From: a virus
Lineage: Duplodnaviria > Heunggongvirae > Uroviricota > Caudoviricetes
Direction: 5' to 3' (one strand)
Length of the DNA: 25,013 nucleotides
IMG/VR virus record: IMGVR_UViG_3300045988_007239
Location: 1-25,013 of that record
This document shows positions 5 to 25,013 of the stretch, one piece after another. Position 1 is the first letter of the stretch; the number at the start of each line of letters is the position of its first letter. Below the pieces are notes generated by a model, which made no database searches, was not told where the DNA came from, and worked only from the letters and a program-made list of their open reading frames with translations. The position numbers and the translations under genes are program-made.

Positions 5-469
5 TTATTTTCTCTCCATGTGAAATCTGTGGAAATTAAGACCAAGAGCACCATAAGGCGCGGATTCTTCAAGCCTGAATCCAAGCCAGTGCAGCCATGC
101 TTTGGCAACATGGTTTCGCTCGTCGACGTAGTTTTCCAGGCGCGGATAAACTGCCAGCATCTGCTGCAATACAGGGCGGCAGTGGCGAAGAAATGTCTTC
201 TGATATTTTTCGATACGGCTGGTTCCGACCAGCCAGGGCGTACCATTGCCACCGATCATTGACGCCGGAGATACGCCAAACATGGTTACCAGTTCTCCGT
301 TCGCAAATCCTGACCAGGCCATAGTCGCAGTGTGCAGACCAACGCGCAGCGCATCTTCGGTAGTCATCAGCGATACCGCATACAGTTCGTCAATATCAGC
401 CTGACGAACATCCGGCAAAATCATCTGAAGATGCTCTTCGGTTGCGGGAATAATTTGAACATCGATCAT
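5..469 (-). CDS. hypothetical virion-associated protein (possibly internal virion protein)
   Basis: 154-aa ORF; start overlaps stop of upstream 823-aa tail gene by 1 nt (coupled); lies after tail-tube-like genes. Function is by position only. Confidence 0.5.
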   Translation of the reverse strand: MIDVQIIPATEEHLQMILPDVRQADIDELYAVSLMTTEDALRVGLHTATMAWSGFANGELVTMFGVSPASMIGGNGTPWLVGTSRIEKYQKTFLRHCRPVLQQMLAVYPRLENYVDERNHVAKAWLHWLGFRLEESAPYGALGLNFHRFHMERK

Positions 470-2940
470 CAGAATCCCCCAACAGTAAGGCGAGGAATAA
501 CGGCAAGAACAGACAGCGGCAACGGGTCAAGCTGACGGATTTTTACACGTCCGTTTTTGCCCCAGTTACTGTCCAGTTTCACTTCTACTTTTCCGGTAGC
601 ATCATCAACAGGATCATCGTAGAACTCGAATTCACGCTGTGGATATTCGTACCATTTACCGCCGGGCGTAGTCGCCCAGATGCCGCGACTGGCATTCACA
701 ACCAGAGTAACGGACGGGATCACCTGTTTTTTGTCCAGCAGCGTTTCCTGTCCGTTAATGTTGATATCCAGTGTTTCGAATTCAGCAGTTATTGGCAGGC
801 CGATGTGCACTACAGCCCCCGGTGATTCCAGCGTGACGGCACCTCCGGAAACTACTTTCTGTGGTTCCACGTTCGCATCAGAGAGGATGTTTACGGTCTG
901 ACCTTCAAGATGAGACAAGCCGCCAAATGCCCGGCGCGCCATCTGCCAGTTCGTGGTGGCCACATTCCTGAGGGATGGCGGGACGTTCCTGTTAGCACGA
1001 ACCACTACAGCGGTGTTGCTGGTTACAGAAATAATGTCGCAACGTAATTCTTTTGACACTTCATCGCCAGTATCAGGATCAGTTCCGGTATAAGGGAACT
1101 GTAGTTGCGCACCGACATCACTACTGGTGAAGTACGCACCGCCAGAAATACTGATTGTATATTCCGCGCGGTAATCCCATTCGCCAGAACCACCAGTGAT
1201 GGTCATCGTTCTGTCAGACGTATTTCTTCCATCATAGCTAAGGCCAGAATCAACAAAGAAAGCATCTTCATCGCTGGTAAATAAACGGCTGGACAGTCGC
1301 TCGATGTATCTCACTGTTTGCCCGTTAACGGTTCGGTTAACGACGAAATACACCGCATCTTCATTTCCTTCGCTGATACTGCATGTGCTTTCATATTTTC
1401 CGGTACTGGATTGTGGTGCCCATGCAAAAACCTGCTGATCACGCAAATAGGTCATCACCAGTAATTTACCGTCATCACGAATGCAGAAGGCGCTGGAGTA
1501 AGGGACAATAGAGAAGCACCAGTCAACAATGCTGTGCTTCTGAAAAAGATGATTGGCAAGGATGGTCAGGTCGTTCCCCTGATAGCCGTCAACATCGAAT
1601 GAGTAGGCCAGATCACGGACAACGCTGCCTTTCTCCTGGACGAACAGAGCAATATTCGCCACGGCAATTGGCGGGACGTTGCTTGAGCCATTTGATCCCT
1701 GAGAGCTGAATGCAAATGATGATGGGGTTAACACTTTGTTCTGGTCGCCGGTGATGACGTACTCACCTCCGGAAGTCAGCGCCACCAGAGAACCAACATC
1801 AATCAGGTGGCGGATCTCATTAACCTGACGTCCGGCATAGGTGTAGATAATTCTGTCGTCATCCTGCGTAGGATTGCTTTTGCCAAAATCCTTATAATCC
1901 CCGGTACGGCTGGCCCAGATAGTCTGAGGAAACGCAGTCGATGCGGCGAAGTAAAGACGTTGTTGATAATAAACAACAGTGCCAGGATAACCATTAACAC
2001 TGTTCCAGGCATATTTAGCCCATTTATAGCTGGCATTATCCTCGCCCACGACCTGCGAAGGGATATAGGAAATCACCTCGGCAGTTGCAGTAGTTCCATT
2101 TGCAGCAGTGATACGGGCAATGCCAAAACCACTGTGCAGATATTCCCACTCAATGCCAGTATCATCATCACCGGATCCGCCCCAGCCATCCCATGATGTG
2201 CCTTCTGTATGCGAAGGGCGCAAAGTACCTGTTTTGCCTGCTGTAACGGCGCGATAGTAGTTACTGTCTGCACGGCGAATATCGCCAATCGACGTACTCT
2301 TACTGGTTTCCCATACCGGCACAGAATCCACTGCAGGCTGTTCCAGATAGAACAATTTGCCTACCTGCTCCGCGCCAAAAATAGAGGCGCTTGCCGTTAG
2401 CGTAATTGTCCCGGTGCTGGCGCTGGCATAAACCGTCACTGACTCGTCAATATTGATATCTTCAAATGGCCCGTTCTTCGTTACCACATCAACCAGTTGC
2501 CAGTTGTCATGCGCATAGCGGCGCAACTCTTTCGGCGGGTATGCCGGGTGAACCAGCGTAAGCACGTCGGCGCTTTGCGTAAATTTAATTCGGAACAGAT
2601 CGGCTTCAGTATATGGCGTGGCAATTTCATAAATAACATTGCTGCTGTTCAGCACCAACGCACCATCTTTGATAACGCGCATGTACTGGTGTCCGAACTC
2701 CAGAGCATAAGTCTGAACCGTCGAGAACTGGAACGGGATCAGGCGGCATTTCCGATTTGGGTATTTGGCGGCACCGACAAAACGCGTACCAGGTCGATTC
2801 TCAACTCCGCCATACTGCCGCACGATAAAGTTATCGCACTTGCGCAATGCCACCTGGTACTTCGCCATGTCGATACGACCGTACAACGACGGTCCAATCT
2901 CACCACCGGCAAAGCTGGGCTGGATCCAACTGATAGCCAT
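469..2940 (-). CDS. large tail structural protein, podovirus tail tubular protein B-like
   Basis: 823-aa ORF coupled to flanking genes in the head/tail operon; size and N-terminal GG-x-I-x-P pattern recall T7 gp12-type nozzle proteins (from memory, unverified). Confidence 0.55.
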   Translation of the reverse strand: MAISWIQPSFAGGEIGPSLYGRIDMAKYQVALRKCDNFIVRQYGGVENRPGTRFVGAAKYPNRKCRLIPFQFSTVQTYALEFGHQYMRVIKDGALVLNSSNVIYEIATPYTEADLFRIKFTQSADVLTLVHPAYPPKELRRYAHDNWQLVDVVTKNGPFEDINIDESVTVYASASTGTITLTASASIFGAEQVGKLFYLEQPAVDSVPVWETSKSTSIGDIRRADSNYYRAVTAGKTGTLRPSHTEGTSWDGWGGSGDDDTGIEWEYLHSGFGIARITAANGTTATAEVISYIPSQVVGEDNASYKWAKYAWNSVNGYPGTVVYYQQRLYFAASTAFPQTIWASRTGDYKDFGKSNPTQDDDRIIYTYAGRQVNEIRHLIDVGSLVALTSGGEYVITGDQNKVLTPSSFAFSSQGSNGSSNVPPIAVANIALFVQEKGSVVRDLAYSFDVDGYQGNDLTILANHLFQKHSIVDWCFSIVPYSSAFCIRDDGKLLVMTYLRDQQVFAWAPQSSTGKYESTCSISEGNEDAVYFVVNRTVNGQTVRYIERLSSRLFTSDEDAFFVDSGLSYDGRNTSDRTMTITGGSGEWDYRAEYTISISGGAYFTSSDVGAQLQFPYTGTDPDTGDEVSKELRCDIISVTSNTAVVVRANRNVPPSLRNVATTNWQMARRAFGGLSHLEGQTVNILSDANVEPQKVVSGGAVTLESPGAVVHIGLPITAEFETLDININGQETLLDKKQVIPSVTLVVNASRGIWATTPGGKWYEYPQREFEFYDDPVDDATGKVEVKLDSNWGKNGRVKIRQLDPLPLSVLAVIPRLTVGGF

Positions 2941-3545
2941 CAGGACAACCTCGCAATGGTAAACTCGTCAACCGGTGGCAGTGGTTCCTGTGATTCATTC
3001 TGGCTATGCGAGCCAGCACTAAGAATCACGCGATTGTACATATTGAGGGCAAACGTACCGAGGTCTGCATTCCCAGTCAGCGCCATGTTAATAGCTGCCG
3101 CAAGACGCCAGGCCAACGCCTCCATAAAAATGGCATCAAACATGTTCACATCTGAAACGCGAGAGACATACTTGAGCCATGCCTGCGGCTGGTCTGTGTA
3201 GATCAACTTTCCTGTTCCGTTGGTGTCTGCACCAACTTCGTACTGAACGCGCATTGCTGCTGTTGGATTGCGTACACCAGGAAGCATAATTTCAGTAATG
3301 CGCAGACAATCGGACGGGTACTGATACGCATATTCCCAGTCAGGCGGTGGATTGCTCGTATCTGCAAGCGCCACGCGTTTGGTAGCAAAGTTCCAGTCAA
3401 AATCAGAAAGCACAGCATCACGGCAGGCCTCAAAGTGCAGCGAACATTCCCCCGCTTCCTTGCTGGCTTCCGTCAGGCTGTTAATGCTGCGGCTATTGCC
3501 AATATTGGACAGCGCACGATTGCAGATCTCTACTACAGAGGCCAT
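2940..3545 (-). CDS. tail tubular protein A-like / head-tail adaptor
   Basis: 201-aa ORF immediately upstream of the 823-aa gene; N-terminal I-x-N-x-AL-x-x-IG ... W-x-F pattern recalls T7 gp11 family; stop/start overlap with neighbours. Confidence 0.45.
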   Translation of the reverse strand: MASVVEICNRALSNIGNSRSINSLTEASKEAGECSLHFEACRDAVLSDFDWNFATKRVALADTSNPPPDWEYAYQYPSDCLRITEIMLPGVRNPTAAMRVQYEVGADTNGTGKLIYTDQPQAWLKYVSRVSDVNMFDAIFMEALAWRLAAAINMALTGNADLGTFALNMYNRVILSAGSHSQNESQEPLPPVDEFTIARLS

Positions 3546-8646: not shown

Positions 8647-8714
8647 ATCAATGACTCCGTACGCAATTAAATTATTACCAATTTAACCACATATGATTTA
8701 TTTATCGTAGATAG

Positions 8715-8751
8715 TTGACATTTAACGCATAAATTATTACCTTTTGGGTAA
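8715..8751 (+). promoter_or_regulatory. promoter-operator module driving the tRNA insert
   Basis: TTGACA (8715-8720) followed by perfect TTACC-ttttg-GGTAA (8737-8751); the stretch acgcataaattattacc nearly duplicates the pL-like promoter at 19351-19367. Confidence 0.45.
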
Positions 8752-9073
8752 CCAAAGAGTTCATTCCGGTTACTAACCTGACTGGCTTGTCGTTAAATTG
8801 AACAGGTGGAGTGAGCTTTTATTTTGAGCAGTACGGCGTATGGCACATGCGCCGATAGCGGTCTGGATACGTTTAAGGGGCACCCTCCCTTGCTCGGGCA
8901 AACGAACCAGGTAGCCGGAATGTGCAAGTCGAGCGGTTTTATTCCGCGCACGGGGATTCACCATCCCGGCGATTCGGTGTGACACCTCGGAAGAGACGAG
9001 GGTACAACGATGAGAGCATTTATGGAGCCGCGACAAAGTGTGGTGCCTTAACAGGCTAAGTGCTCTCAGCGTT

Positions 9074-9150
9074 GTGGCATTAGCTCAGTTGGACAGAGCA
9101 ACCGCCTTCTAAGCGGTTGGTCGCAGGTTCGAATCCTGCATGCCGCGCCA
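9074..9150 (+). tRNA. tRNA-Arg (anticodon UCU)
   Basis: 77-nt cloverleaf folded by hand: acceptor gtggcat/atgccgc (one G-U), D-arm gctc..gagc, anticodon stem accgc/gcggt with loop cuUCUaa, T-arm gcagg-ttcgaat-cctgc, encoded CCA end. Confidence 0.9.
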
Positions 9151-16235: not shown

Positions 16236-16238
16236 GAT

Positions 16239-16313
16239 TTACCTCTAAGGTAATTAAAAACCACATAAGACACGAAATCAATAGAGTTTAGAATATTTTA
16301 TTACCTGATAGGT
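16239..16313. promoter_or_regulatory. two operator palindromes flanking a candidate promoter for the nin-like genes
   Basis: Perfect TTACC-tctaa-GGTAA (16239-16253) and TTACC-tgata-GGTAA (16299-16313); a TTGATT -35-like element lies between them on the - strand. Confidence 0.5.
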
Positions 16314-16352
16314 AATTGTTGAGGCGTAAAAAAATGCGCTATCGCGCTGGTA

Positions 16353-17931: not shown

Positions 17932-18124
17932 AGGTTTCCCCTCTTGCACTCTTTAGTGCACAAGCAAATTCATTACGATGGCGGTTGGCGCTATTCATTG
18001 CACATTCAACACATGTTCCGTTCAGAACATACCTTTCAGAGAGATGGCCGTGACGGCACCGCTTTCCTGTGAAATAGCGATTTAACCCGGCTTTTGCGGC
18101 CTCCATTCTGGTTACTATCTTCAA
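17912..18124 (-). CDS. small zinc-finger protein in the cII position
   Basis: C-x-H-x-H ... C-x2-C cluster; start uncertain (TTG at 18124 with GGGGG RBS, or ATG at 18106); overlaps start of the initiator gene. Confidence 0.4.
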
Positions 18125-18203
18125 TTTTTCCGCCCCCTTTTTGTTATTGATATTGGCTATTTTGCACAATTGGAAAATTTGATCAACCAGATTTGGTTTT
18201 TTA

Positions 18204-18218
18204 TTACCTTTGAGGTAC
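18204..18218. promoter_or_regulatory. imperfect operator palindrome
   Basis: TTACC-tttga-GGTAc, 9 of 10 specified bases; just downstream of the cro-like gene terminator. Confidence 0.3.
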
Positions 18219-18224
18219 GAATAG

Positions 18225-18251
18225 ATATGAAAAGACCGCCGGATGGCGGTC
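18225..18251 (-). terminator. intrinsic terminator after cro-like gene (tR1-like position)
   Basis: GACCGCC-N4-GGCGGTC stem followed on the - strand by TTTTCAT. Confidence 0.55.
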
Positions 18252-18273
18252 TACAGAGGGTTGTGGCTGGATA

Positions 18274-18504
18274 TCATGAGTAGAAGAAGTATGCCAGTTC
18301 TGCTTTTGAGCGCAGCCATTGTCTTGTTTTACAGGCTTTAAAAAGCCCATTCATCAATACCTTACCTGGCATTTTGCGCTTACCTGTTAAGTGAGTCTGG
18401 ATATAGTGACTCGTCGTTCCGGCTTCCTGTGCGAAGGCTTCACGCTCATCCGGAGTAAGTGCAAGCCAGTGCTTTTTGAAATCGAAATGTCCGTTATCGC
18501 TCAT
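18274..18504 (-). CDS. Cro/YdaS-like HTH regulator
   Basis: 76-aa ORF divergent from the repressor gene; helix-turn-helix-like segment; classical cro position. Confidence 0.65.
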   Translation of the reverse strand: MSDNGHFDFKKHWLALTPDEREAFAQEAGTTSHYIQTHLTGKRKMPGKVLMNGLFKACKTRQWLRSKAELAYFFYS

Positions 18505-18540
18505 AGCTATTGCCTGATATTTATTTCAGATAATAAATAT

Positions 18541-18603
18541 TCACCCATAAGGTAACAAAAATCAAGGATAGTTACCTATGAGGTGCATTTACCTGTTGGG
18601 TAA
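18541..18603. promoter_or_regulatory. immunity-region operator cluster (OR-like) with divergent promoters
   Basis: Three sites: tcACC-cataa-GGTAA (18541-18555), TTACC-tatga-GGTgc (18572-18586), perfect TTACC-tgttg-GGTAA (18589-18603); between divergent cro-like and repressor genes. Confidence 0.55.
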
Positions 18604-18658
18604 TATTGCTTTAAATTGAATCATCTACTGATTCATATATGAGGCGATTTTCCAGAAA

Positions 18659-19243
18659 ATGAAAAGTATCCAGGACGTCCGCAGGCAAAATCTCAACGAC
18701 TTGATCGACCGTGAATTCAATGGTGTTCAGACGCGGATGGCAGAAAAACTTGGAACTCAGGCAAATCTGGTAAACCGCTGGGCTCTTGGCAAGAAGGTTA
18801 TCGGCGACCAGGTTGCACGAAAAATTGAAGCTGCCGCCAATAAACCCCGTAACTGGCTTGATATCGATCGCTCGCTTTCTCAGGAAGGTTTTCAGCCTGT
18901 CGGCCCGAGCGATATAGGTCAGCTGGCGGCTCACAACCTGGAACGCTGGATGAGCGAAAGCCGCGACCTTTCAACGCAGGGAAAACTACACCGCGCATCC
19001 GGCGTCGCCCAGGTGACAATCAGCCGCCTGTTAAACAATGAGGTCAGCGTTTCCATTTCCACCCTGGAGAATGTTGCATCCGCATTCGGGCGTCACGGCT
19101 ATGAATTACTGATTCACCCGCACGACCCTGCGACCATCAACTATGATCGCTCGCGCTACGCATTGTTACCCGAAACCGAGAAAGCAAAGATCGAAAGTTA
19201 CATTGAATTTGTCATCAACCAGAACGAAAAAAACAAACAATAA
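18659..19243 (+). CDS. phage repressor with two HTH (XRE-type) domains, no LexA-like peptidase domain
   Basis: 194 aa; two HTH-like segments (LGTQANLVNRWALGK and SGVAQVTISRLLNNEV); no Ser/Lys peptidase motif region; followed by a strong terminator. Confidence 0.75.
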   Translation: MKSIQDVRRQNLNDLIDREFNGVQTRMAEKLGTQANLVNRWALGKKVIGDQVARKIEAAANKPRNWLDIDRSLSQEGFQPVGPSDIGQLAAHNLERWMSESRDLSTQGKLHRASGVAQVTISRLLNNEVSVSISTLENVASAFGRHGYELLIHPHDPATINYDRSRYALLPETEKAKIESYIEFVINQNEKNKQ

Positions 19244-19263
19244 AATCATATTTTTCAGTAAGT

Positions 19264-19288
19264 AAGCCGCCTTCTGGCGGCTTTTTTA
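19264..19288 (+). terminator. intrinsic terminator after repressor gene
   Basis: GCCGCC-ttct-GGCGGC stem followed by TTTTTT. Confidence 0.7.
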
Positions 19289-19300
19289 TTGCCTATTCGA

Positions 19301-19377
19301 TTACCTAATGGGTAATTTTTTTAACTCATATCTATTGACATCAAACCAGATACGCATAATTATTACCTCAACGGTAA
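19301..19377 (+). promoter_or_regulatory. pL-like promoter with two operators
   Basis: Perfect TTACC-taatg-GGTAA (19301-19315); TTGACA (19335-19340), 17-nt spacer, AATTAT; perfect TTACC-tcaac-GGTAA (19363-19377) at the predicted transcription start. Confidence 0.6.
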
Positions 19378-19396
19378 CAGACCGAGGTAACAAGTT

Positions 19397-19549
19397 ATGC
19401 AGTGGAAAATCATCAACGGTTGGTACTGCGTTACTGCATGCGGATTCATGAGCTGGAAGTTCCGCACCTTACAGGAAGGCATTAAGTGGGCTTTCGTCAG
19501 CAAAGAAGCTCGCGATGTGGCCAACGATAACGAGATATGGGAGGGCTGA
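19397..19549 (+). CDS. small hydrophobic protein (50 aa), first gene of early-left operon
   Basis: Hand-translated MQWKIINGWYCVTACGFMSW...; GAGGT RBS 8 nt upstream; stop 2 nt before the next gene; below track cutoff. Confidence 0.35.
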   Translation: MQWKIINGWYCVTACGFMSWKFRTLQEGIKWAFVSKEARDVANDNEIWEG

Positions 19550-19551
19550 TA

Positions 19552-19851
19552 ATGAACGTTAATCAGCAGAAAAATCTTCAAAAAATCATGCTGGCATTCG
19601 ACAAGGACTACCGCCTGTCAGAACAGCTATATGACCGACAAGTTGAACTGATCGAGAGCATCCGGCTTCATCAACTGGCCTCAACTTTTGACGCTGTAAC
19701 AGGCAAAGGAGTTCGCCAGGAAGTGCTGGAGGCAGCTAAAGACAGCCCTGAGTTCGAAGAACTTATGGATGCCTACCGGCGCGAGGCAATAGCAATTATC
19801 GCCCGCTGGGATCTGGCGGATCGGATTGATGGGCAGAGGGAAGCGGCATGA
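19552..19851 (+). CDS. hypothetical protein (99 aa)
   Basis: Start set at ATG 19552 with GGGAGGG RBS, not the track's 19537; stop overlaps the exonuclease gene start. Confidence 0.6.
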   Translation: MNVNQQKNLQKIMLAFDKDYRLSEQLYDRQVELIESIRLHQLASTFDAVTGKGVRQEVLEAAKDSPEFEELMDAYRREAIAIIARWDLADRIDGQREAA

Positions 19852-20669
19852 AACCGGGAATTTATTTCGACATCAGCAACGAAGACTACCACGCCGGTGA
19901 CGGCGTGAGTAAGTCGCAACTGGACATGGTTGCCAAGAATCCGGCGCTTCTTAAATGGGTTCAGGCAGCACCAGAAGACGAAGAGAAAAAGTCTGCACTG
20001 GATATGGGAACCGCATTGCACTGTCTGCTTCTGGAGCCTGGAGAATTCGACAAACGCTTCATTGTTTCACCGAAGTTCGATCGTCGGACGAAACAAGGTA
20101 AAGCTGACGAAGAAGCATTTCTTCGTGATGTAGCGGATATGGGGATTACGGTACTTGATGCCGAGCAGTGGCGGAAACTGGAGCTGATGCGTGATAGCGC
20201 AATGGCTCACCCGGCGGCACGCTGGATGCTGGAAGCACCTGGTTACTGCGAAGCATCAATGTACTGGAATGATGAAGAGACTGGTGAGTTGTGCCGCATT
20301 CGTCCAGACAAATGGCTGAACGAGCACAACGTGATCGTCGACGTGAAAAAGGTTGCAGATATGGATCGTTTTGCACGCCACATCGAGGAATTCCGCTACC
20401 ACGTGCAGGACGCAATGTACCGCGAAGGAGCGATGAGGGTTACTGGTCAGTCGCATGGTTTTTTCTTTCTTGCCGTGAGCGAAAGCATTGATTGTGGTCG
20501 GTATCCGGTACGCGTGTTCGAGCTGGATGCGCCGGATGTCGATGCCGGGCACGCTCTGTTCCGCCGGGATCTGAATACCTATCACGAATGCCGCATCAAC
20601 GATGAATGGGGCGGCGTGGAAATTATTAAACGCCCTGACTGGGCACGTAAACAGGATATGTACGTATGA
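19848..20669 (+). CDS. recE: RecE-like exonuclease (exodeoxyribonuclease VIII catalytic domain only)
   Basis: 273 aa; GIYFDISNEDYHAG ... SKSQLD ... GTALHCLLLEPGEFDKRF ... CRIRPDK ... DVKK closely resembles the RecE C-terminal nuclease domain as I remember it. Confidence 0.8.
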   Translation: MKPGIYFDISNEDYHAGDGVSKSQLDMVAKNPALLKWVQAAPEDEEKKSALDMGTALHCLLLEPGEFDKRFIVSPKFDRRTKQGKADEEAFLRDVADMGITVLDAEQWRKLELMRDSAMAHPAARWMLEAPGYCEASMYWNDEETGELCRIRPDKWLNEHNVIVDVKKVADMDRFARHIEEFRYHVQDAMYREGAMRVTGQSHGFFFLAVSESIDCGRYPVRVFELDAPDVDAGHALFRRDLNTYHECRINDEWGGVEIIKRPDWARKQDMYV

Positions 20670-21547
20670 GCAATGATATCGCAATCACATCACAACCAGG
20701 CGCAACTGTAGGTACTGCTGCGGCAATCTTCAGCCCGGAGGGCATGAATCAACTGGTGCGTTTCGCGGAGTTGATGTCACAAAGCAAAGCGACTGTACCG
20801 AAACATCTTGAAGGCAAACCTGCCGATTGTCTGGCGGTGACCATGCAGGCGGCACAGTGGGGAATGAACCCTTTCGCCGTGGCGCAGAAAACGCATGTGG
20901 TAAACGGAACGTTAGGCTACGAAGCACAGTTGGTAAACGCGGTCGTATCCTCTTCCAGCCTGCTAGCGACACGCCTGAATTATCGCTGGAGCGGTGACTG
21001 GTCGAATGTTAACGGCAAAACAGATAAATCACCGAATCTGACGGTAACTGTGTCAGCAGTTCTTAAAGGAGAAGCAGAACCCCGTGAGCTTACCATCAGT
21101 ATGGCGCAAGCCGGAGTGCGTAACTCTCCATTGTGGGAACAGGATCCGCGCCAGCAGCTTGCCTATCTTTGCACGAAACGATGGGCTCGCCTGCACGCTC
21201 CTGATGTACTTCTCGGTGTTTACACCCCTGACGAATTACAGGAAACGGCACCGCGCGTTGAGCGAGACATTACTCCGCAAACGACTACTGCTGCGGCAAT
21301 GAACAGTCTGATCAACGCTAAACCAGTGAAAAAGCCTGATGAGCAAACGCGTAAAGCGGATAGCCGTGATCCAGAAGAAATGCTGATGGCCTTTACCAGC
21401 GCAGCGATGAATTACAGCACTGTCTCCGAACTGGATAAGGCTTACAAATACATTGCACAAAAACTTTCAGATGATGACGAACTGCTGGCAAAAGCCACCG
21501 ACGTTTACAGCGTTCGTCGGGAAGAATTAAACGAAACATCTATGTAA
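20666..21547 (+). CDS. single-strand annealing protein, RecT/Red-beta (Bet) family
   Basis: 293 aa; QWGMNPF ... ERDITP and C-terminal W-x-RL pattern resemble lambda Bet; coupled to the exonuclease gene. Confidence 0.75.
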   Translation: MSNDIAITSQPGATVGTAAAIFSPEGMNQLVRFAELMSQSKATVPKHLEGKPADCLAVTMQAAQWGMNPFAVAQKTHVVNGTLGYEAQLVNAVVSSSSLLATRLNYRWSGDWSNVNGKTDKSPNLTVTVSAVLKGEAEPRELTISMAQAGVRNSPLWEQDPRQQLAYLCTKRWARLHAPDVLLGVYTPDELQETAPRVERDITPQTTTAAAMNSLINAKPVKKPDEQTRKADSRDPEEMLMAFTSAAMNYSTVSELDKAYKYIAQKLSDDDELLAKATDVYSVRREELNETSM

Positions 21548-21596
21548 CCACCACCGCGGCGCCACGCGCGCCGCACTGCAACCAAGAGAGGTATTT

Positions 21597-21845
21597 ATGA
21601 AAGGTGCATTAGGTAAGAAGGAACTCCTGGCGGTGGTGCCACTGTCATGGAGCACTATCGACCGTATGGAGCGCGCAGGGGAATTTCCTAAACGCTGGTA
21701 TATCACCGATAAACGCTGCGCATGGAACCGTGATGAAGTTGAGCGTTGGCTTGATGAACGTCAGGCAGCAAGCCCGGCAGAGTTCCAGGGTAAAAAACCT
21801 CCTGTTCAGCAACGTGTATATCGTCCTGTGAGCAACGCGGCATGA
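21597..21845 (+). CDS. AlpA-family DNA-binding protein (excisionase/regulator-like)
   Basis: 82 aa; S-x-STI-x-R ... G-x-FP ... W-x-x-x-EV-x-x-WL pattern typical of AlpA/Vis-type proteins. Confidence 0.7.
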   Translation: MKGALGKKELLAVVPLSWSTIDRMERAGEFPKRWYITDKRCAWNRDEVERWLDERQAASPAEFQGKKPPVQQRVYRPVSNAA

Positions 21846-21954
21846 GTGTGCTGCTAAGGCACTGGAGCAAATGGTCAGGATGGTACTTATTCCTGGCCTC
21901 TGTTTCAGCATGGCTTTATCTGCTGGCATTAATTTTCAGAGAGGGTTGGATTAA

Positions 21955-22254
21955 GTGAGAAAGTTAAGCCGACTTGAAAAATATCACATGAACAAGGTTT
22001 CAATGCGCAGCCCTTCAAAGGTTGTTGCCGTTACTCCTGCGGCGATAGAGATCGAAAAACGCGCGATTGAAAGAGAGAAAAAAGGGCAGTTCCGCATTGC
22101 CGCCCACCTTTGGCTTCAGTGTATGGATGTTGCTTCTGGTGATGTTGAACGTGCAAGGATCGCGGTTCGCAGGGACCAATGTATCACAAAAGGTAACGGC
22201 CTTCGCCGTGGCGACTATAGCGGCATAGGATGTTGTGGGGTGGTTTATGACTAA
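21955..22254 (+). CDS. PerC/ANR-like small regulator
   Basis: 99-aa ORF (GTG start per track); RIAAHLW ... ERARIAVRRDQC resembles the PerC-family motif; assignment from memory. Confidence 0.45.
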   Translation: MRKLSRLEKYHMNKVSMRSPSKVVAVTPAAIEIEKRAIEREKKGQFRIAAHLWLQCMDVASGDVERARIAVRRDQCITKGNGLRRGDYSGIGCCGVVYD

Positions 22255-22897
22255 GAAATACACACTAATCTATGCAGATCCACCCTGGGTATACCGGGAC
22301 AAAGCCGCAGATGGTAATCGCGGTGCCGGTTTTAAATATCCGGTTATGAGTGTGCTGGATATCTGCCGCCTTCCTGTGTGGGATTTGGCCGATGAAAACT
22401 GTCTGTTGGCCATGTGGTGGGTGCCAACACAACCACTCGAAGCACTAAAAGTTGTTGAAGCCTGGGGATTCCGTCTGATGACGATGAAGGGCTTCACGTG
22501 GATAAAATGTGGTAGTCGACAACCAGATAAACTGGTTATGGGTATGGGACACATGACTCGCGCCAATAGTGAAGATTGCCTGTTTGCGGTAAAGGGAAAA
22601 CTACCTACGCGCATTAATGCAGGGATCGTTCAGTCATTTACCGCACCGCGGCTTGAGCATTCAAGAAAGCCAGATATCGTTCGTGAAAAACTTGTGCAAT
22701 TATTAGGCGATGTTTCTCGCATTGAACTGTTCGCCCGCCAGACGTCTCATGGCTTCGATGTTTGGGGTAATCAGTGCGAAGACCCGGCAGTGCAACTACA
22801 CCCTGGATACGCGTTGGATATCGGCGGATTAACAAATGCATTCAGCAATGCTCCGCTGTCACCAACAGACAACCAGGGGCGGGAGCGTGCAGCATGA
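22247..22897 (+). CDS. MT-A70 family N6-adenine DNA methyltransferase
   Basis: IYADPPW motif near N-terminus; start taken at ATG 22247 (track uses GTG 22235). Confidence 0.8.
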
Positions 22898-23553
22898 ACC
22901 TATATCAACGCATCAATGGCGCTGACTGGTGCAATATCTTCGTCGTCGGCGATCTGCATGGGTGCTACACGCTGCTGATGAACGAACTCGACAAAGTTTC
23001 ATTCGACCCGGCGCGCGATTTGCTTATTTCCGTTGGTGACCTTGTTGACCGCGGCGCTGAAAACGTCGAATGCCTGGATTTGATTACTATGCCGTGGTTC
23101 CGAGCTGTTCGTGGCAACCATGAGCAGATGATGCTGGATGCACTGGTCAACGGCGGAAGTTTCGGACATTGGATGTCAAACGGCGGTGGATGGTGGCACC
23201 AACTTGATTCTGAGCAGGATGTGCAACTCAAATACCTTCTGCCAAAGGTTACCAACCTCCCGATGATTATCGAACTGGTTACCGGCAATAAGAAGGTCGT
23301 CATCTGCCACGCAGACTACCCGCACAACGAATACGCATTCGATAAGCCAGTACCGGAAGAAATGGTGATATGGAATCGTGAGCGGGTTAGCGACGCGCAG
23401 GACGGTATTGTCTCGGAGATAACCGGTGCCGATTTGTTCATCTTCGGTCATACGCCAGCACATCACCCACTGGTGTATGCAAACCAAATGTACATCGACA
23501 CCGGCGCAGTGTTCTGCGGAAATCTGACGCTTACCAAAGTCCAGGAAGGATAG
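22894..23553 (+). CDS. Ser/Thr protein phosphatase (lambda PPase-like metallophosphatase)
   Basis: GDLHG, GDLVDRG and GNHE motifs; start at ATG 22894, overlapping the methyltransferase stop (ATGA); the track's N-terminal extension is rejected. Confidence 0.85.
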
Positions 23554-23555
23554 AA

Positions 23556-24812
23556 TTATTTATTACTGTCTTCCATCCACTTCTCAAACTTCGACGGGGA
23601 GAACGGAATCAGATCCGTATGCTCCCCGTTAATCCAGGAATCAATCATATCGGCCCACTGCTGCAACATGTAGGCGCGCTGTCTGGCGTATTCCGCTTTG
23701 TTATATACGGCGCGCACACCTTTCTGCTCGTGTGCCAGAGCCTTTTCAATCCAGTCTGAAGGATAACCAGCCTCATGCAACAATGTACTGGCTGTACGGC
23801 GCATATCATGTACAGTGAAATCCTGAATATGCTCACCATCTTCATTTATTATTTTCACCGTTCTGTCGATCAGAGAGTTCAGCGCGGCATTAGATAATGG
23901 CTTCCGGAAATTGTAACGACCAGGAACCAGATATTCACTTCCACCAGCGCACATCTGCAACCCGACTAATATATCCTGTGCCTGTTTAGGCAGGTAAATA
24001 ACGTGCGCCCGACCTCCCTTCATGCGGTCTGAAGGAATTGTCCATGTCCATTTTTTAAAATCTATTTCATCCCACGTTGCATTGGTTAATTCTCCCTTAC
24101 GAACCATGGTGATAAGCACCAGCTTTAAAGCCATTTTCATAGTGCCCATAGCACCAATGGCATCCAGCGTGCGGAAGAACAGGCCAATTTCTTCTGGTGT
24201 CAGTGTTCGCTCTCGTGGTTTAAATATGGCGATAGACGAAGGTTTAATGTCAGCCGCAGGATTAAACAAACCATGACCACGGTCATTGGCGTGACGGTAT
24301 ACGCTGCTGATGATCTCCCTGGCCTGTACTGCTGTTGCCCGACCACCGCGTTCGACAATCCGGTCACACAAATCACGAACCATCGATGTGGTAATTTCAG
24401 CCATCATTTTGTTGCCAAGAACCGGAAGTATGTCACGGTCGATCACCGCCTGCTTCATTGCGCGGGTACTGTCAGCCAGGATGACGTGTTTCATATAACT
24501 GTCGGTATGTACCGCAAACGTCTCGGCACCACGAATCTTTTTAATACCGTCACGTTTAGCCGCAGCCGGTGACTGGCCTGCTTTAAGCAGCTTCTTTGCA
24601 GCAATCAGTTCTTCTCGCGCTTCTGCCAAGCTGATACCGTCACGCCCATACTGCCCGATTACCAGTGTTTCGCGGCGACCGTTGATACGGTAGTCATAGC
24701 GAAACGAGACCGTGCCTGACGTAAGCACAGCTACATACAGCCCGTCACGATCGGAGACCTTGTACAGTTTGTCCTGCGGCTTGAGGTTTTTTAATTTTGT
24801 ATCGGTAAGCAC
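23556..24812 (-). CDS. int: tyrosine integrase (P4-type)
   Basis: 418 aa; arm-binding-like N-terminus, catalytic-domain motifs (HDMRRT, C-terminal Tyr region); GTG start at 24812; convergent with the early-left operon. Confidence 0.9.
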   Translation of the reverse strand: MLTDTKLKNLKPQDKLYKVSDRDGLYVAVLTSGTVSFRYDYRINGRRETLVIGQYGRDGISLAEAREELIAAKKLLKAGQSPAAAKRDGIKKIRGAETFAVHTDSYMKHVILADSTRAMKQAVIDRDILPVLGNKMMAEITTSMVRDLCDRIVERGGRATAVQAREIISSVYRHANDRGHGLFNPAADIKPSSIAIFKPRERTLTPEEIGLFFRTLDAIGAMGTMKMALKLVLITMVRKGELTNATWDEIDFKKWTWTIPSDRMKGGRAHVIYLPKQAQDILVGLQMCAGGSEYLVPGRYNFRKPLSNAALNSLIDRTVKIINEDGEHIQDFTVHDMRRTASTLLHEAGYPSDWIEKALAHEQKGVRAVYNKAEYARQRAYMLQQWADMIDSWINGEHTDLIPFSPSKFEKWMEDSNK

Positions 24813-24835
24813 AATTCACCCGTATAGAAACCATT

Positions 24836-24876
24836 TTCATGACGGTATGAGAGTATACCTTTAAGGTAATACCGTC
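24836..24876. promoter_or_regulatory. long palindrome with embedded operator-like site in the integrase promoter region
   Basis: TGACGGTA ... TACCGTCA outer inverted repeat enclosing aTACC-tttaa-GGTAA (24855-24869), 25-65 nt upstream of the int start. Confidence 0.4.
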
Positions 24877-24934
24877 ACCTGTACCGCCGAAAAATATGGT
24901 GTAGAGTGAATAGAAATGAATACATAAAAACAAA

Positions 24935-24958
24935 AACCCTCTGTAAAAACAGAGGGTT
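24935..24958 (-). terminator. intrinsic terminator at prophage edge (acts on leftward transcripts)
   Basis: CCCTCTG-N6-CAGAGGG stem; on the - strand it is followed by TTTTTGTTTTT. Confidence 0.55.
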
Positions 24959-25013
24959 AAATTAGTATCTGAATAGGAATGATTTGCTATGAGTTAGCTG
25001 TTAATCATTCCCA

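Follow-up and report, generated by a model that had tools for sequence, protein, structure and literature searches.

A PerC-like gene, an orphan MT-A70 methyltransferase gene and a lambda-type phosphatase gene at the probable distal end of the early-left operon in a phiV10-type prophage of Escherichia coli

Results

Genes next to the integrase

The window, by which we mean the whole stretch of 25,013 nucleotides that was analysed, contains at positions 21955-23553 three consecutive genes for a PerC-like protein, an MT-A70 family methyltransferase and a lambda-type phosphatase (Table 1). An earlier note on this DNA had read these three genes from the letters, and the open reading frames and significant family matches bear out that reading. 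The note had also correctly placed the cluster beside int, which is convergent with it and ends 2 bp from the phosphatase stop codon, with guaA located just beyond int. The matches of the three proteins to the PHROG families phrog_868, phrog_359 and phrog_246 (“NinI-like phosphatase”) had E-values of 6.5e-62 to 1e-120 and were much stronger than the corresponding Pfam matches. Rfam and tRNA scans returned nothing in or near the cluster.

Table 1. Features of the window between the repressor gene and the integrase gene.
Feature	Position	Strand	Description
Prophage repressor gene	18659..19243	+	Two-HTH type, like epsilon15 gp38 and SPC32H Rep; phrog_8 and other repressor families; repressor annotated at the same position in phiV10 and epsilon15
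Intrinsic terminator 3' of the repressor gene	19264..19283	+	8-bp stem, 6 GC pairs, T-run; a terminator is annotated in the corresponding position of phiV10
Predicted early-left (pL-like) promoter region	19300..19377	+	-35 TTGACA at 19335-19340; -10 AATTAT at 19358-19363
RecE-like exonuclease	19848..20669	+	Pfam DUF3799; phrog_412/phrog_561 for the RecE-like/RecT pair; same operon, upstream of the cluster
RecT	20666..21547	+	Pfam RecT; phrog_412/phrog_561 for the RecE-like/RecT pair; same operon, upstream of the cluster
AlpA-family small DNA-binding protein (excisionase/regulator type)	21597..21845	+	PF05930, E=3.1e-05; phrog_66, E=2e-16
Conserved 38-aa membrane-protein ORF	21842..21958	+	phrog_17484, E=4.7e-27; annotated in phiV10, SPN1S, epsilon15, Tyrion and PAS61
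PerC-like protein, epsilon15 gp31 homologue, 99 aa	21955..22254	+	GTG start; PF06069; phrog_868 matches 1-99 of 99; alternative ATG at 21988 and 22003
MT-A70 family N6-adenine methyltransferase (predicted), 216 aa	22247..22897	+	PF05063; DPPW at aa 11-14; no partner restriction endonuclease, no PNB-2-like partner
Lambda NinI-type Mn-dependent Ser/Thr protein phosphatase (predicted), 219 aa	22894..23553	+	Variable slot between methylase and int
Tyrosine integrase (P4-type)	23556..24812	-	Arm-DNA-bind_3, Phage_int_M and Phage_integrase domains

Control region and operon structure

The repressor gene heads the same strand as the cluster. The predicted sigma-70 promoter following its terminator, at 19335-19363, matches 10 of the 12 consensus positions, and in a consensus scan it was the best match between 18000 and 25013 and the only strong promoter-like site on the plus strand there. 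Two palindromic predicted operators of the form ATTACC-N5-GGTAA flank it, one at 19300-19315, which is 19 bp upstream of the -35 box, and the other at 19362-19377, overlapping the -10 box. These align with annotated repressor-binding sites of epsilon15, and the motif has 18 strand matches in the window compared with 0.2 expected.

An unbroken string of plus-strand genes extends to the 3' end of int, consisting of two small ORFs followed by the genes for the RecE-like protein, RecT, the AlpA-like protein, the 38-aa membrane protein, the PerC-like protein, the methylase and the phosphatase, most of which overlap by 4-8 nt. The membrane-protein ORF overlaps both alpA (ATGA) and the PerC-like gene (GTGA), and the chain of coupled genes thereby reaches upstream of position 21955, where the earlier note had let the cluster begin. 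No operator, promoter-like or terminator-like site was found on the plus strand from 19378 to 24577 in a consensus scan that a weak or sigma-S promoter 5' of the PerC-like gene could escape. Likewise, the consensus scan identified no promoter or terminator separate from the phage operons around the cluster, the genes of which overlap their neighbours. The GC content of the cluster (0.48-0.53) is like that of the neighbouring genes and the window mean is 0.497; the GC scan gave no sign of atypical base composition.

Identity and distribution of the element

The window is assigned to a phiV10/epsilon15-type temperate podovirus prophage located next to guaA in E. coli. Over 3.5 kb it has 99.4% identity to a guaA-located prophage of E. 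coli Ecol_AZ146, and the phages vB_EcoP_PAS61 (OQ921333) and BP9 (PP488543) are 98% identical to it with the same gene order. Prophages of the phiV10 type gave matches in 650 of the 5426 complete genomes of E. coli (roughly a tenth), and about 144 of the 5426 have the arrangement with the phosphatase junction, as RefSeq prophages at guaA. These phages and prophages carry the same DNA in the same order at 98-99.4% identity. There is no material difference between them and the window, which is a further copy of the same element. The deposited PAS61 and BP9 records, like the RefSeq prophages, already name a PerC family regulator, an MT-A70 methyltransferase, a serine/threonine phosphatase and an integrase. 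GenBank and RefSeq already contain the element together with its gene order and annotations, and it is known and ordinary.

In the genus Uetakevirus (phiV10, epsilon15, SPN1S and Tyrion) the genes are arranged in the order repressor, terminator, operators, recE/T, alpA, 38-aa membrane ORF, PerC, a variable segment, methylase, another variable segment and the convergent int. SPN1S, Tyrion and epsilon15 have extra genes between PerC and the methylase (DUF1317, DndB-like DGQHR, wHTH, gp30). The slot 3' of the methylase is occupied by DUF1382 in phiV10, by a “transacetylase repressor” in epsilon15, by small hypothetical genes in SPN1S and Tyrion, and by the phosphatase in the window.

The PerC-like protein

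A Pfam profile search matched the PerC-like protein to PF06069 with an E-value of 6e-07 (30.1 bits, cut-off 22.6), aligning aa 35-80 with profile positions 5-50 of 90. The in-frame conservation of the N-terminal 34 aa across epsilon15 and SPN1S, with 78.8% identity over aa 1-99, supports the GTG start at 21955. Tblastn searches of 72,556 plasmids (E<=1) and 50,697 phages (E<=0.01), collections not confirmed to hold pEAF plasmids or pch-bearing prophages, recovered epsilon15-like elements only. Like PerC of the EPEC pEAF plasmid and PchA-E of EHEC prophages, the protein is small, scores above the PF06069 gathering threshold and is encoded in a prophage. It differs from them in that about half of the profile is matched, the ANR family also gives a match, below threshold, and BLAST-level similarity was seen in these searches with epsilon15-like elements only. 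The similarity to PerC is at the profile level, and the relation to the virulence regulators appears to be remote. Of the link drawn by the earlier note, the family match stands, and the tie to virulence regulators is weakened.

The MT-A70 methyltransferase and its relatives

The methylase matches PF05063 (MT-A70) over the full profile (1-172 of 172) with an E-value of 2.8e-22 and 79.9 bits against a cut-off of 23.9, and structures of MTA1 (E=4e-13) and METTL3 (E=6e-06) were among its PDB matches. The catalytic motif IV, D11 P12 P13 W14, is invariant in nine phage homologues. The start is most likely the ATG at 22247, which gives an overlap of 8 nt with the stop of the PerC-like gene (ATGACTAA), and not the GTG at 22235, with which the longest ORF opens. 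In every relative examined except epsilon15, which has a 46-nt gap between gp30 and the methylase, the methylase overlaps the gene before it, be it PerC, DUF1317, wHTH, DndB-like, DUF4060 or PNB-2.

The methyltransferase is an orphan, as had been claimed: family profile searches of the window identified no restriction endonuclease gene near it, and the only nuclease-like matches were the RecE-like protein, a Holliday-junction resolvase and an HNH protein, which is encoded 1.4 kb away from the gene for the small terminase subunit. PADLOC assigned generic Type II MTase models to the methylase (PDLC03262, E=2.7e-77) and had no match for the phosphatase or the PerC-like protein. The window has 92 GATC sites, about one per 272 bp, with an observed/expected ratio of 0.69 that is lower still for CTAG and GGCC, and the count is uninformative about the specificity of the methylase.

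The closest characterised relative is M.EcoPA8orf6770P, encoded by an Oslovirus-PA2-type Stx2a phage, with 156 of 187 residues identical (83%) over aa 1-187. The alignment stops at aa 187 and the C-terminal ~30 aa are unrelated. A variant of the loop at aa 85-103 is common to both enzymes and differs from the epsilon15/SPN1S/Tyrion type. The Stx2a locus that we compared holds the exact gp7-gp6 terminator printed in PMC10810198. The enzyme of the Stx2a phage phiPA8 has been reported to methylate 16S rRNA, to need the partner PNB-2, its targeting subunit, and to raise spontaneous induction (Gong, Chakraborty and Koudelka, NAR 2024, PMC10810198). The same study reported that the methylase and PNB-2 have a stationary-phase promoter of their own and that the rRNA of lysogens already carries the modification, from which expression in the lysogen follows, and it linked the STEC-type C-terminal ~27 aa to the presence of PNB-2 (PMC10810198). 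M.EcoGV from E. coli O104:H4, a close relative of M.EcoPA8orf6770P, has instead been assigned the motif GATC (PMC6602927), an assignment disputed by Gong et al., who observed no more than weak DNA activity for the subunit alone (PMC10810198). The DNA/GATC assignment of the M.EcoGV family rests on over-expression, and the rRNA claim on SAM-consumption assays with no mapped site.

The window shares with these systems the DPPW motif, the loop variant, an upstream gene that overlaps the methylase start and a location near the int end, and in the phiV10 allele also DUF1382 downstream. It differs from the Stx2a phage in having neither a PNB-2 gene nor the STEC-type C-terminal ~27 aa, and in that the phage itself is a podovirus of a different lineage. 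Furthermore, the Stx locus is a unit of its own insulated by an upstream terminator, whereas the window has no terminator-like site on the plus strand between 19283 and 24578. A tblastn search of the window with PNB-2 gave chance matches only (E=3.3), and no wHTH or DndB homologue was found in the window either. PNB-2 itself has a faint HTH_11 match in Pfam. The PerC-like protein gave no BLASTP alignment to PNB-2, and we therefore reject the idea that it is the PNB-2 equivalent by homology. Nor is the Tyrion wHTH protein convincing as a PNB-2 relative, the match being 26 aa across the HTH (E=0.048). We also considered whether the C-terminal tail of the methylase co-varies with PerC adjacency, and rejected this because Tyrion has the same tail with a wHTH gene upstream.

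Other adenine methyltransferases were considered and set aside. M.EcoGIX is plasmid-borne and acts on single strands, and M.EcoGII/GI are non-specific prophage enzymes of the 349-aa DPPY class beta rather than of the MT-A70 family. The latter matter here solely as an earlier case of prophage methyltransferases that are silent in lysogens.

The phosphatase cassette

The phosphatase matches PF00149 (Metallophos, E=1.2e-15), phrog_246 (E=9e-108) and the lambda PPase structure PDB 1G5B (E=6.7e-100), the last without gaps over aa 1-217, and the motifs GDLHG, GDLVDRG, GNHE and GHTP all align without gaps to lambda PPase. Its identity is 67% to lambda NinI, a PPP-family metallophosphoesterase, and 78.5% to phi80 Ppp. 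Against the NCBIfam equivalogs for E. coli PrpA and PrpB it scored below the cut-offs (266 vs 326 bits and 221 vs 332). The ATGA coupling to the methylase that the earlier note described is real and can be read directly from the sequence (GCAGCATGAACC), with the ATG at 22894 and the TGA at 22895-22897.

Homology to phiV10 is lost immediately after ATGAAC and regained within the final codons of int. The last ~5 codons of int are part of the exchanged segment, and the C-terminus of the integrase reads ...KWMEDSNK in the window, compared with ...KWMAGE in phiV10. The phosphatase junction occurs in 144 genomes; among the other matches listed, which make up most of the E. coli copies, DUF1382 is found there. 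The phosphatase gene is a swapped cassette in place of DUF1382. In lambda, phi80, 434 and the HK phages, the phosphatase gene is located by ninE/ninH/ninG/Q, and in lambda and phi80 this nin region belongs to the rightward operon, between the replication genes and Q, whereas in the window it is the last gene of the leftward early operon, abutting int.

Discussion

We hypothesize, with a probability of about 0.7, that the three genes come last in an early-left (pL-type) operon belonging to a temperate podovirus of the phiV10/epsilon15 type. The cluster would then be part of a repressed early operon rather than a moron or a special module for lysogenic conversion. The lack of any promoter-like, terminator-like or operator site from 19377 to the cluster, together with the unremarkable GC content, makes expression at induction more likely than expression in the lysogen. 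In this scenario, the repressor would hold the early-left operon off in the lysogen, and after infection or antirepressor-mediated induction the operon would be read as a single delayed-early transcript, so that the PerC-like protein, the methylase and the phosphatase would be made alongside the recombination and excision functions.

Under the same operon hypothesis, the three products would be unrelated accessory functions and not a system. The PerC-like protein (gp31), a core gene product of epsilon15-like phages, is probably a small helical regulator of phage or host transcription. The methylase, a member of the M.EcoGV/M.EcoPA8orf6770P family with an intact DPPW and without PNB-2, most likely places m6A on replicating phage DNA, with GATC or a relaxed specificity. 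This would keep the phage DNA fully methylated when replication outruns the host Dam, and some residual activity on RNA is possible. The phosphatase, which has kept all metal- and phosphate-binding motifs, is probably a functional NinI/lambda-PPase orthologue that came as a cassette from the nin region of a lambdoid phage and displaced DUF1382 in the slot before int. It presumably strips phosphates from Ser, Thr, Tyr and His residues of host proteins in lytic development. The value of the coupling as a sign of function is weakened by such overlaps being generic in operons of this type and by the phosphatase being an interchangeable cassette. Nor did we find support for a functional pair elsewhere; Vibrio phage pYD21-A has both genes, but 2 kb apart and with the portal gene between them.

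The earlier note had instead suggested a conversion cluster that may be expressed in the lysogen, in which the methylase would mark or protect the lysogen DNA and the PerC-like protein would cross-activate host virulence regulators. The cluster does lie at the prophage end, where it physically adjoins int and attL, in a region with a slot that differs in content among relatives, and since the epsilon15 gene in this slot is annotated with a serotype-conversion function, the slot can carry genes expressed in lysogens. In addition, the Stx-phage homologue of the methylase has been reported to act in lysogens (PMC10810198), and some Pch proteins are known to regulate host genes (PMC6265319). We nevertheless consider this explanation unlikely, as the cluster has no promoter-like or terminator-like site of its own, no compositional signature, and genes that are translationally chained to alpA and the membrane ORF and co-oriented with recE/recT 3' of the operator-flanked promoter. 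Its PerC-like protein, moreover, has no BLAST-level relative outside the epsilon15-like elements in the plasmid and phage collections searched, and a GATC motif, if that is what the methylase recognizes, would add nothing in a Dam+ lysogen. The description of the methylase as a classic anti-restriction candidate has likewise lost ground, given that an 83%-identical relative has been reported as a 16S rRNA methyltransferase (PMC10810198) and that M.EcoGV has been assigned GATC (PMC6602927). That the enzyme confers a new specific motif which shields the DNA of incoming or progeny phages from one particular restriction-modification system of the host is the usual interpretation of orphan phage methyltransferases (PMC5778455) and agrees with the PADLOC Type II model, but the nearest named relative points to GATC and not to a novel motif. 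Furthermore, a methylase made only after DNA entry could protect the progeny and not the infecting genome, and the GATC depletion is too small to indicate restriction pressure. We regard such a role as improbable.

Yet another explanation, to which we give similarly little credence, is that the methylase is mainly a 16S rRNA m6A enzyme like M.EcoPA8orf6770P that tunes spontaneous induction, either free of a partner or with the PerC-like protein in place of PNB-2. The 83% identity of the catalytic domains, the shared loop variant and the upstream gene that overlaps the methylase start, as PNB-2 does, are consistent with this idea, as is the observation that MT-A70 enzymes commonly act as heteromers (PMC10810198). 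On the other hand, the PerC-like protein has no similarity to PNB-2, a PNB-2 homologue is absent from the whole window, the PNB-2-associated tail has been replaced by an unrelated one, and the rRNA claim itself comes without a mapped site. Other genes separate PerC from the methylase in Tyrion, SPN1S, epsilon15 and a Klebsiella phage, so that the adjacency in the phiV10 type looks like a simple loss of intervening genes. An extended version of this idea, which we consider a long shot, is that the phiV10-type MT-A70 protein is a 16S rRNA or dual RNA/DNA m6A enzyme, the targeting subunit of which is the small nucleic-acid-binding protein encoded immediately upstream (PerC-like here, and PNB-2, wHTH or DndB-like elsewhere), with the coupled phosphatase acting in the same host-takeover step to set the frequency of spontaneous induction. 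If this were true, the “PerC-like regulators” of the phiV10-type lineage would be methyltransferase specificity factors.

SMRT sequencing of a lysogen and a cured strain side by side, as proposed earlier, could be falsely negative because a GATC motif would be masked by the host Dam. With the target of the methylase family in dispute between GATC DNA and 16S rRNA, such a comparison in a Dam+ host may show nothing either way. In the phiV10-type prophages the Stx-phage enzyme has a counterpart that is naturally “PNB-2-less”, which could help to settle both whether a partner is needed and what the enzyme methylates.

Gene content and identity of the element

An ORF listing and a direct reading of 21500-25013 gave three intact plus-strand ORFs within 21955-23553, and their products match PerC (PF06069; E=6e-07, 30.1 bits against a cut-off of 22.6, over profile positions 5-50 of 90 only), MT-A70 (PF05063; E=2.8e-22, full profile) and Metallophos (PF00149; E=1.2e-15) in Pfam. 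For all three proteins, the PHROG matches were far stronger, namely to phrog_868 ("transcriptional activator"), phrog_359 ("DNA methyltransferase") and phrog_246 ("NinI-like serine-threonine phosphatase"). The three genes proposed in the earlier note are thus present, as are the ATGA overlap between the methylase stop and the phosphatase start (GCAGCATGAACC) and the position beside the tyrosine integrase gene, int. The observation is confirmed; its interpretation is partly supported. The methylase start is almost certainly ATG 22247, the start used by all homologues, giving an 8-nt overlap with the PerC-like stop. GTG 21955 is supported as the PerC-like start by in-frame conservation of residues 1-34 in relatives from Salmonella. 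Upstream, a conserved membrane ORF and an AlpA-family gene extend this series of overlaps.

Coordinates of features in the window
Feature	Position	Strand	Remarks
tRNA-Arg	9074-9150	+	anticodon TCT
Palindrome sites	8736, 11862, 11880, 16238, 16300, 18203, 18588, 19300, 19362, 24855		16-nt; about 10 in window
Two-HTH repressor	18659-19243	+
Intrinsic terminator	19264-19283		strong; follows repressor gene
Operator-like palindrome	19300-19315		ATTACC-N5-GGTAA; 19 bp upstream of -35
Sigma-70-like site	19335-19363	+	TTGACA, 17-nt spacer, AATTAT; best in 18000-25013
Operator-like palindrome, second copy	19362-19377		overlaps -10
RecE-like and RecT genes	19848-21547
recT-alpA gap	21548-21596		only intergenic gap ahead of cluster
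GC-rich hairpin	21556-21574		GCGGCGC-CACGC-GCGCCGC, no T-run; read by eye
AlpA-family gene	21597-21845
Conserved membrane ORF	21842-21958		38 aa; phrog_17484
PerC-like ORF	21955-22254	+	GTG start; 99 aa
Methyltransferase ORF	22247-22897	+	start almost certainly ATG 22247
Methylase aa 85-103 loop	22499-22555		of the Stx-phage type
Phosphatase ORF	22894-23553	+	ATG start; 219 aa
Tyrosine integrase (int)	24812-23556	-	stop 2 bp from phosphatase stop

Identity over a 3.5-kb stretch is 99.4% with a prophage next to the host gene guaA in E. coli Ecol_AZ146 and further strains, and of the 5426 complete E. coli genomes 650 have a match to this stretch. The phages vB_EcoP_PAS61, a 39-kb member of the genus Uetakevirus isolated from cow faeces, and BP9 show precisely this gene order, under identical product names and at 98% identity. 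The element has thus already been deposited with this arrangement and annotation, and is already known. Phage phiV10 and many others match the whole stretch except the phosphatase. Elsewhere, the window agrees with a phiV10/epsilon15-type podovirus, with tail, major head, protease, portal and terminase genes on the minus strand, and O/P-type replication genes and a cro-like gene after this structural block. A phage-borne tRNA-Arg (Rfam 69.4 bits) lies between the terminase and portal blocks.

Transcriptional context

Both palindromes at the sigma-70-like site align with repressor-binding sites annotated in the epsilon15 record, and the motif has 18 strand matches in the window, where chance would give 0.2. 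Outside the immunity region, palindromes occur in the intergenic gaps 8667-8772 and 16236-16352, in the small-terminase ORF toward its 5' end, and at a point 43 nt upstream of int, which suggests that the repressor controls several operons, int included. Downstream of 19378, the operator motif is absent before 24855, a consensus scan found no plus-strand promoter-like site after 19363 within 18000-25013, and a scan for terminators found no plus-strand site between 19283 and 24578. Because no such site intervenes, the cluster is predicted to form the distal end of an early-left operon under repressor control, whose other products include RecE-like, RecT and AlpA-like proteins. The equivalent of the recT-alpA hairpin is annotated as a transcriptional pausing stem-loop in the epsilon15 record. 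RecE-like and RecT are encoded by separate overlapping genes in the window, likewise in PAS61 and SPN1S, unlike the single 1761-bp fusion ORF annotated in the phiV10 record (L002, 1288-3048).

A cluster in the lysogenic-conversion position, possibly expressed in the lysogen, had been proposed from the sequence. The position beside int stands, but the operator-flanked promoter, the lack of an internal promoter-like site and the ordinary GC content (0.48-0.53, equal to that of neighbouring genes) speak against expression in the lysogen. Since the cluster lies distally in a repressor-controlled operon, we favor the hypothesis that it is expressed after infection or induction and not in the lysogen, at a probability of about 0.65-0.7, a value held there by the room that a consensus scan leaves for a weak internal promoter. 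At 23551-23575, the phosphatase and int stops are separated by 2 bp with no terminator, and early-left transcripts must therefore run antisense into int.

Cross-activation of host virulence regulators, which the earlier note cited for the PerC family, does not carry over well to the PerC-like protein. The PF06069 match is above threshold yet partial, and an ANR-family match falls below threshold. A tblastn search found the protein only in epsilon15-like phages (36 records) and in plasmids (16 records), the latter carrying the same epsilon15-like PerC-DUF1317 or PerC-MT-A70 block, and the plasmid collection gave no other match even at E<=1. Because the matches are confined in this way, the gene is probably a lineage-specific core gene, corresponding to gp31 of epsilon15. 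PerC and Pch are related to it at the profile level only, which makes extrapolation to LEE or other regulators weak, and Pch groups differ functionally even within EHEC (PMC6265319).

An ordinary phosphatase in an unusual position

The phosphatase gives a gap-free alignment with lambda protein phosphatase (PDB 1G5B, E=6.7e-100), shares 145 of 217 residues with lambda NinI and 78.5% identity with phi80 Ppp, and retains all of the GDLHG, GDLVDRG, GNHE and GHTP motifs. It is not a PrpA/PrpB equivalog. Two of the 149 phage records with this phosphatase reach at least 99% identity; the one shown is PAS61, where the gene abuts the methylase, and BP9 has the same arrangement at the DNA level. In nearly all other phage records listed, it lies in the nin region beside ninE/ninH/ninG/Q. 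Thus, the position is unusual and the protein ordinary, and the default expectation is that it would remove phosphates from host proteins in the lytic phase. Lambda can do without its nin region, and the lambda-type phosphatase is also a 2',3'-cyclic phosphodiesterase in vitro.

The window and phiV10 have in common an ATGAAC, comprising the methylase stop and the codons for Met-Asn; exactly after it homology ends, to return within the last int codons, the integrase ending in ...KWMEDSNK in the window and ...KWMAGE in phiV10. The phosphatase gene is thus a cassette that brings its own last ~5 int codons (EDSNK, against AGE in phiV10), so that the donor would already have had the phosphatase abutting a related integrase. 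The methylase-phosphatase-int junction occurs in 144 complete E. coli genomes; other matches listed, with 27% query coverage, have a DUF1382 gene in the phosphatase slot.

Gene overlap and methyltransferase function

Among the relatives fetched, the start of the methylase nearly always overlaps the upstream gene's stop, and this upstream gene varies by lineage: PerC-like in the phiV10 type, DUF1317 in Klebsiella ST512-KPC3phi13.3, a 75-aa wHTH protein in Tyrion (L013, 2430-3294), a DndB-like DGQHR protein in SPN1S (L003, 3975-5560), DUF4060 in Hafnia Pocitis76, an unknown 55-aa protein in HK639, PNB-2 in an Oslovirus-PA2-type Stx2a phage (L006, 3148-4127) and an unrelated 76-aa protein in Stx2a phage 06-3462. 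The exception is epsilon15, where the methylase begins 46 nt past gp30. Overlap with such different genes argues for a general trait of tightly packed operons of this kind. One or two genes separate PerC and the methylase in Tyrion, SPN1S, epsilon15 and the Klebsiella phage, and the adjacency in the window is best explained by loss of intervening genes. The only independent methylase-phosphatase linkage found was in Vibrio phage pYD21-A, with the genes 2 kb apart and a portal gene between. We conclude from these gene orders that the three genes are unlikely to form a functional system. The overlapping upstream genes of SPN1S, Tyrion and the Stx2a phage encode different nucleic-acid-binding proteins in each lineage, and a partner role has been tested only for PNB-2; the pairing of DndB-like and MT-A70 genes found in SPN1S and SPC32H deserves a separate look.

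The methylase has the DPPW catalytic motif, invariant across nine homologues, and a sequence search relates it to the solved MT-A70 structures of ciliate MTA1 (E=4e-13) and METTL3 (E=6e-06). It is an orphan, as the earlier note held, with no restriction gene in the window. Among characterised enzymes, its closest relative is M.EcoPA8orf6770P of Stx2a phage, which Gong, Chakraborty and Koudelka (PMC10810198) report to increase virulence and the spontaneous induction of the prophage. By tblastn, residues 1-187 matched more than 100 Stx2a-phage records at 83-84% identity. The methylase of locus L006 is identical at 156 of 187 residues, and this locus contains the exact gp7-gp6 terminator printed in PMC10810198. 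By itself, M.EcoPA8orf6770P is reported to show only weak activity without specificity; its 1:1 complex with PNB-2, encoded by the upstream gene that overlaps it, has a preference for 16S rRNA and 30S subunits, the site of modification not being mapped there (PMC10810198).

One could imagine that the variable upstream gene, here PerC-like, encodes an interchangeable targeting subunit. However, the PerC-like protein does not align with PNB-2, and the C-terminal ~30 residues of the methylase are unrelated to the Stx2a-phage tail that Gong et al. associate with PNB-2; we regard this idea as highly improbable. PNB-2 is absent from the window, in all of which tblastn queries with PNB-2, the Tyrion wHTH protein, DUF1317, DUF1382 and the DndB-like protein gave only chance matches. 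The methylase loop at residues 85-103 is of the Stx-phage type, unlike the epsilon15, SPN1S, Tyrion, Klebsiella and Hafnia homologues, which have HKTNKHKGNSAI-GMG in its place, and is a mosaic patch that probably lies where the substrate is contacted.

M.EcoGV, described as highly similar to M.EcoPA8orf6770P, methylated GATC when over-produced (PMC10810198), and its homologues are listed as GATC enzymes in a study of STEC methylomes (PMC6602927). A lack of new motifs in lysogens, listed in the earlier note among the findings that would refute its proposal, would be uninformative in a Dam+ host. The best reading is that the methylase is a partner-less family member, which would act mainly on replicating phage DNA with GATC or relaxed specificity.
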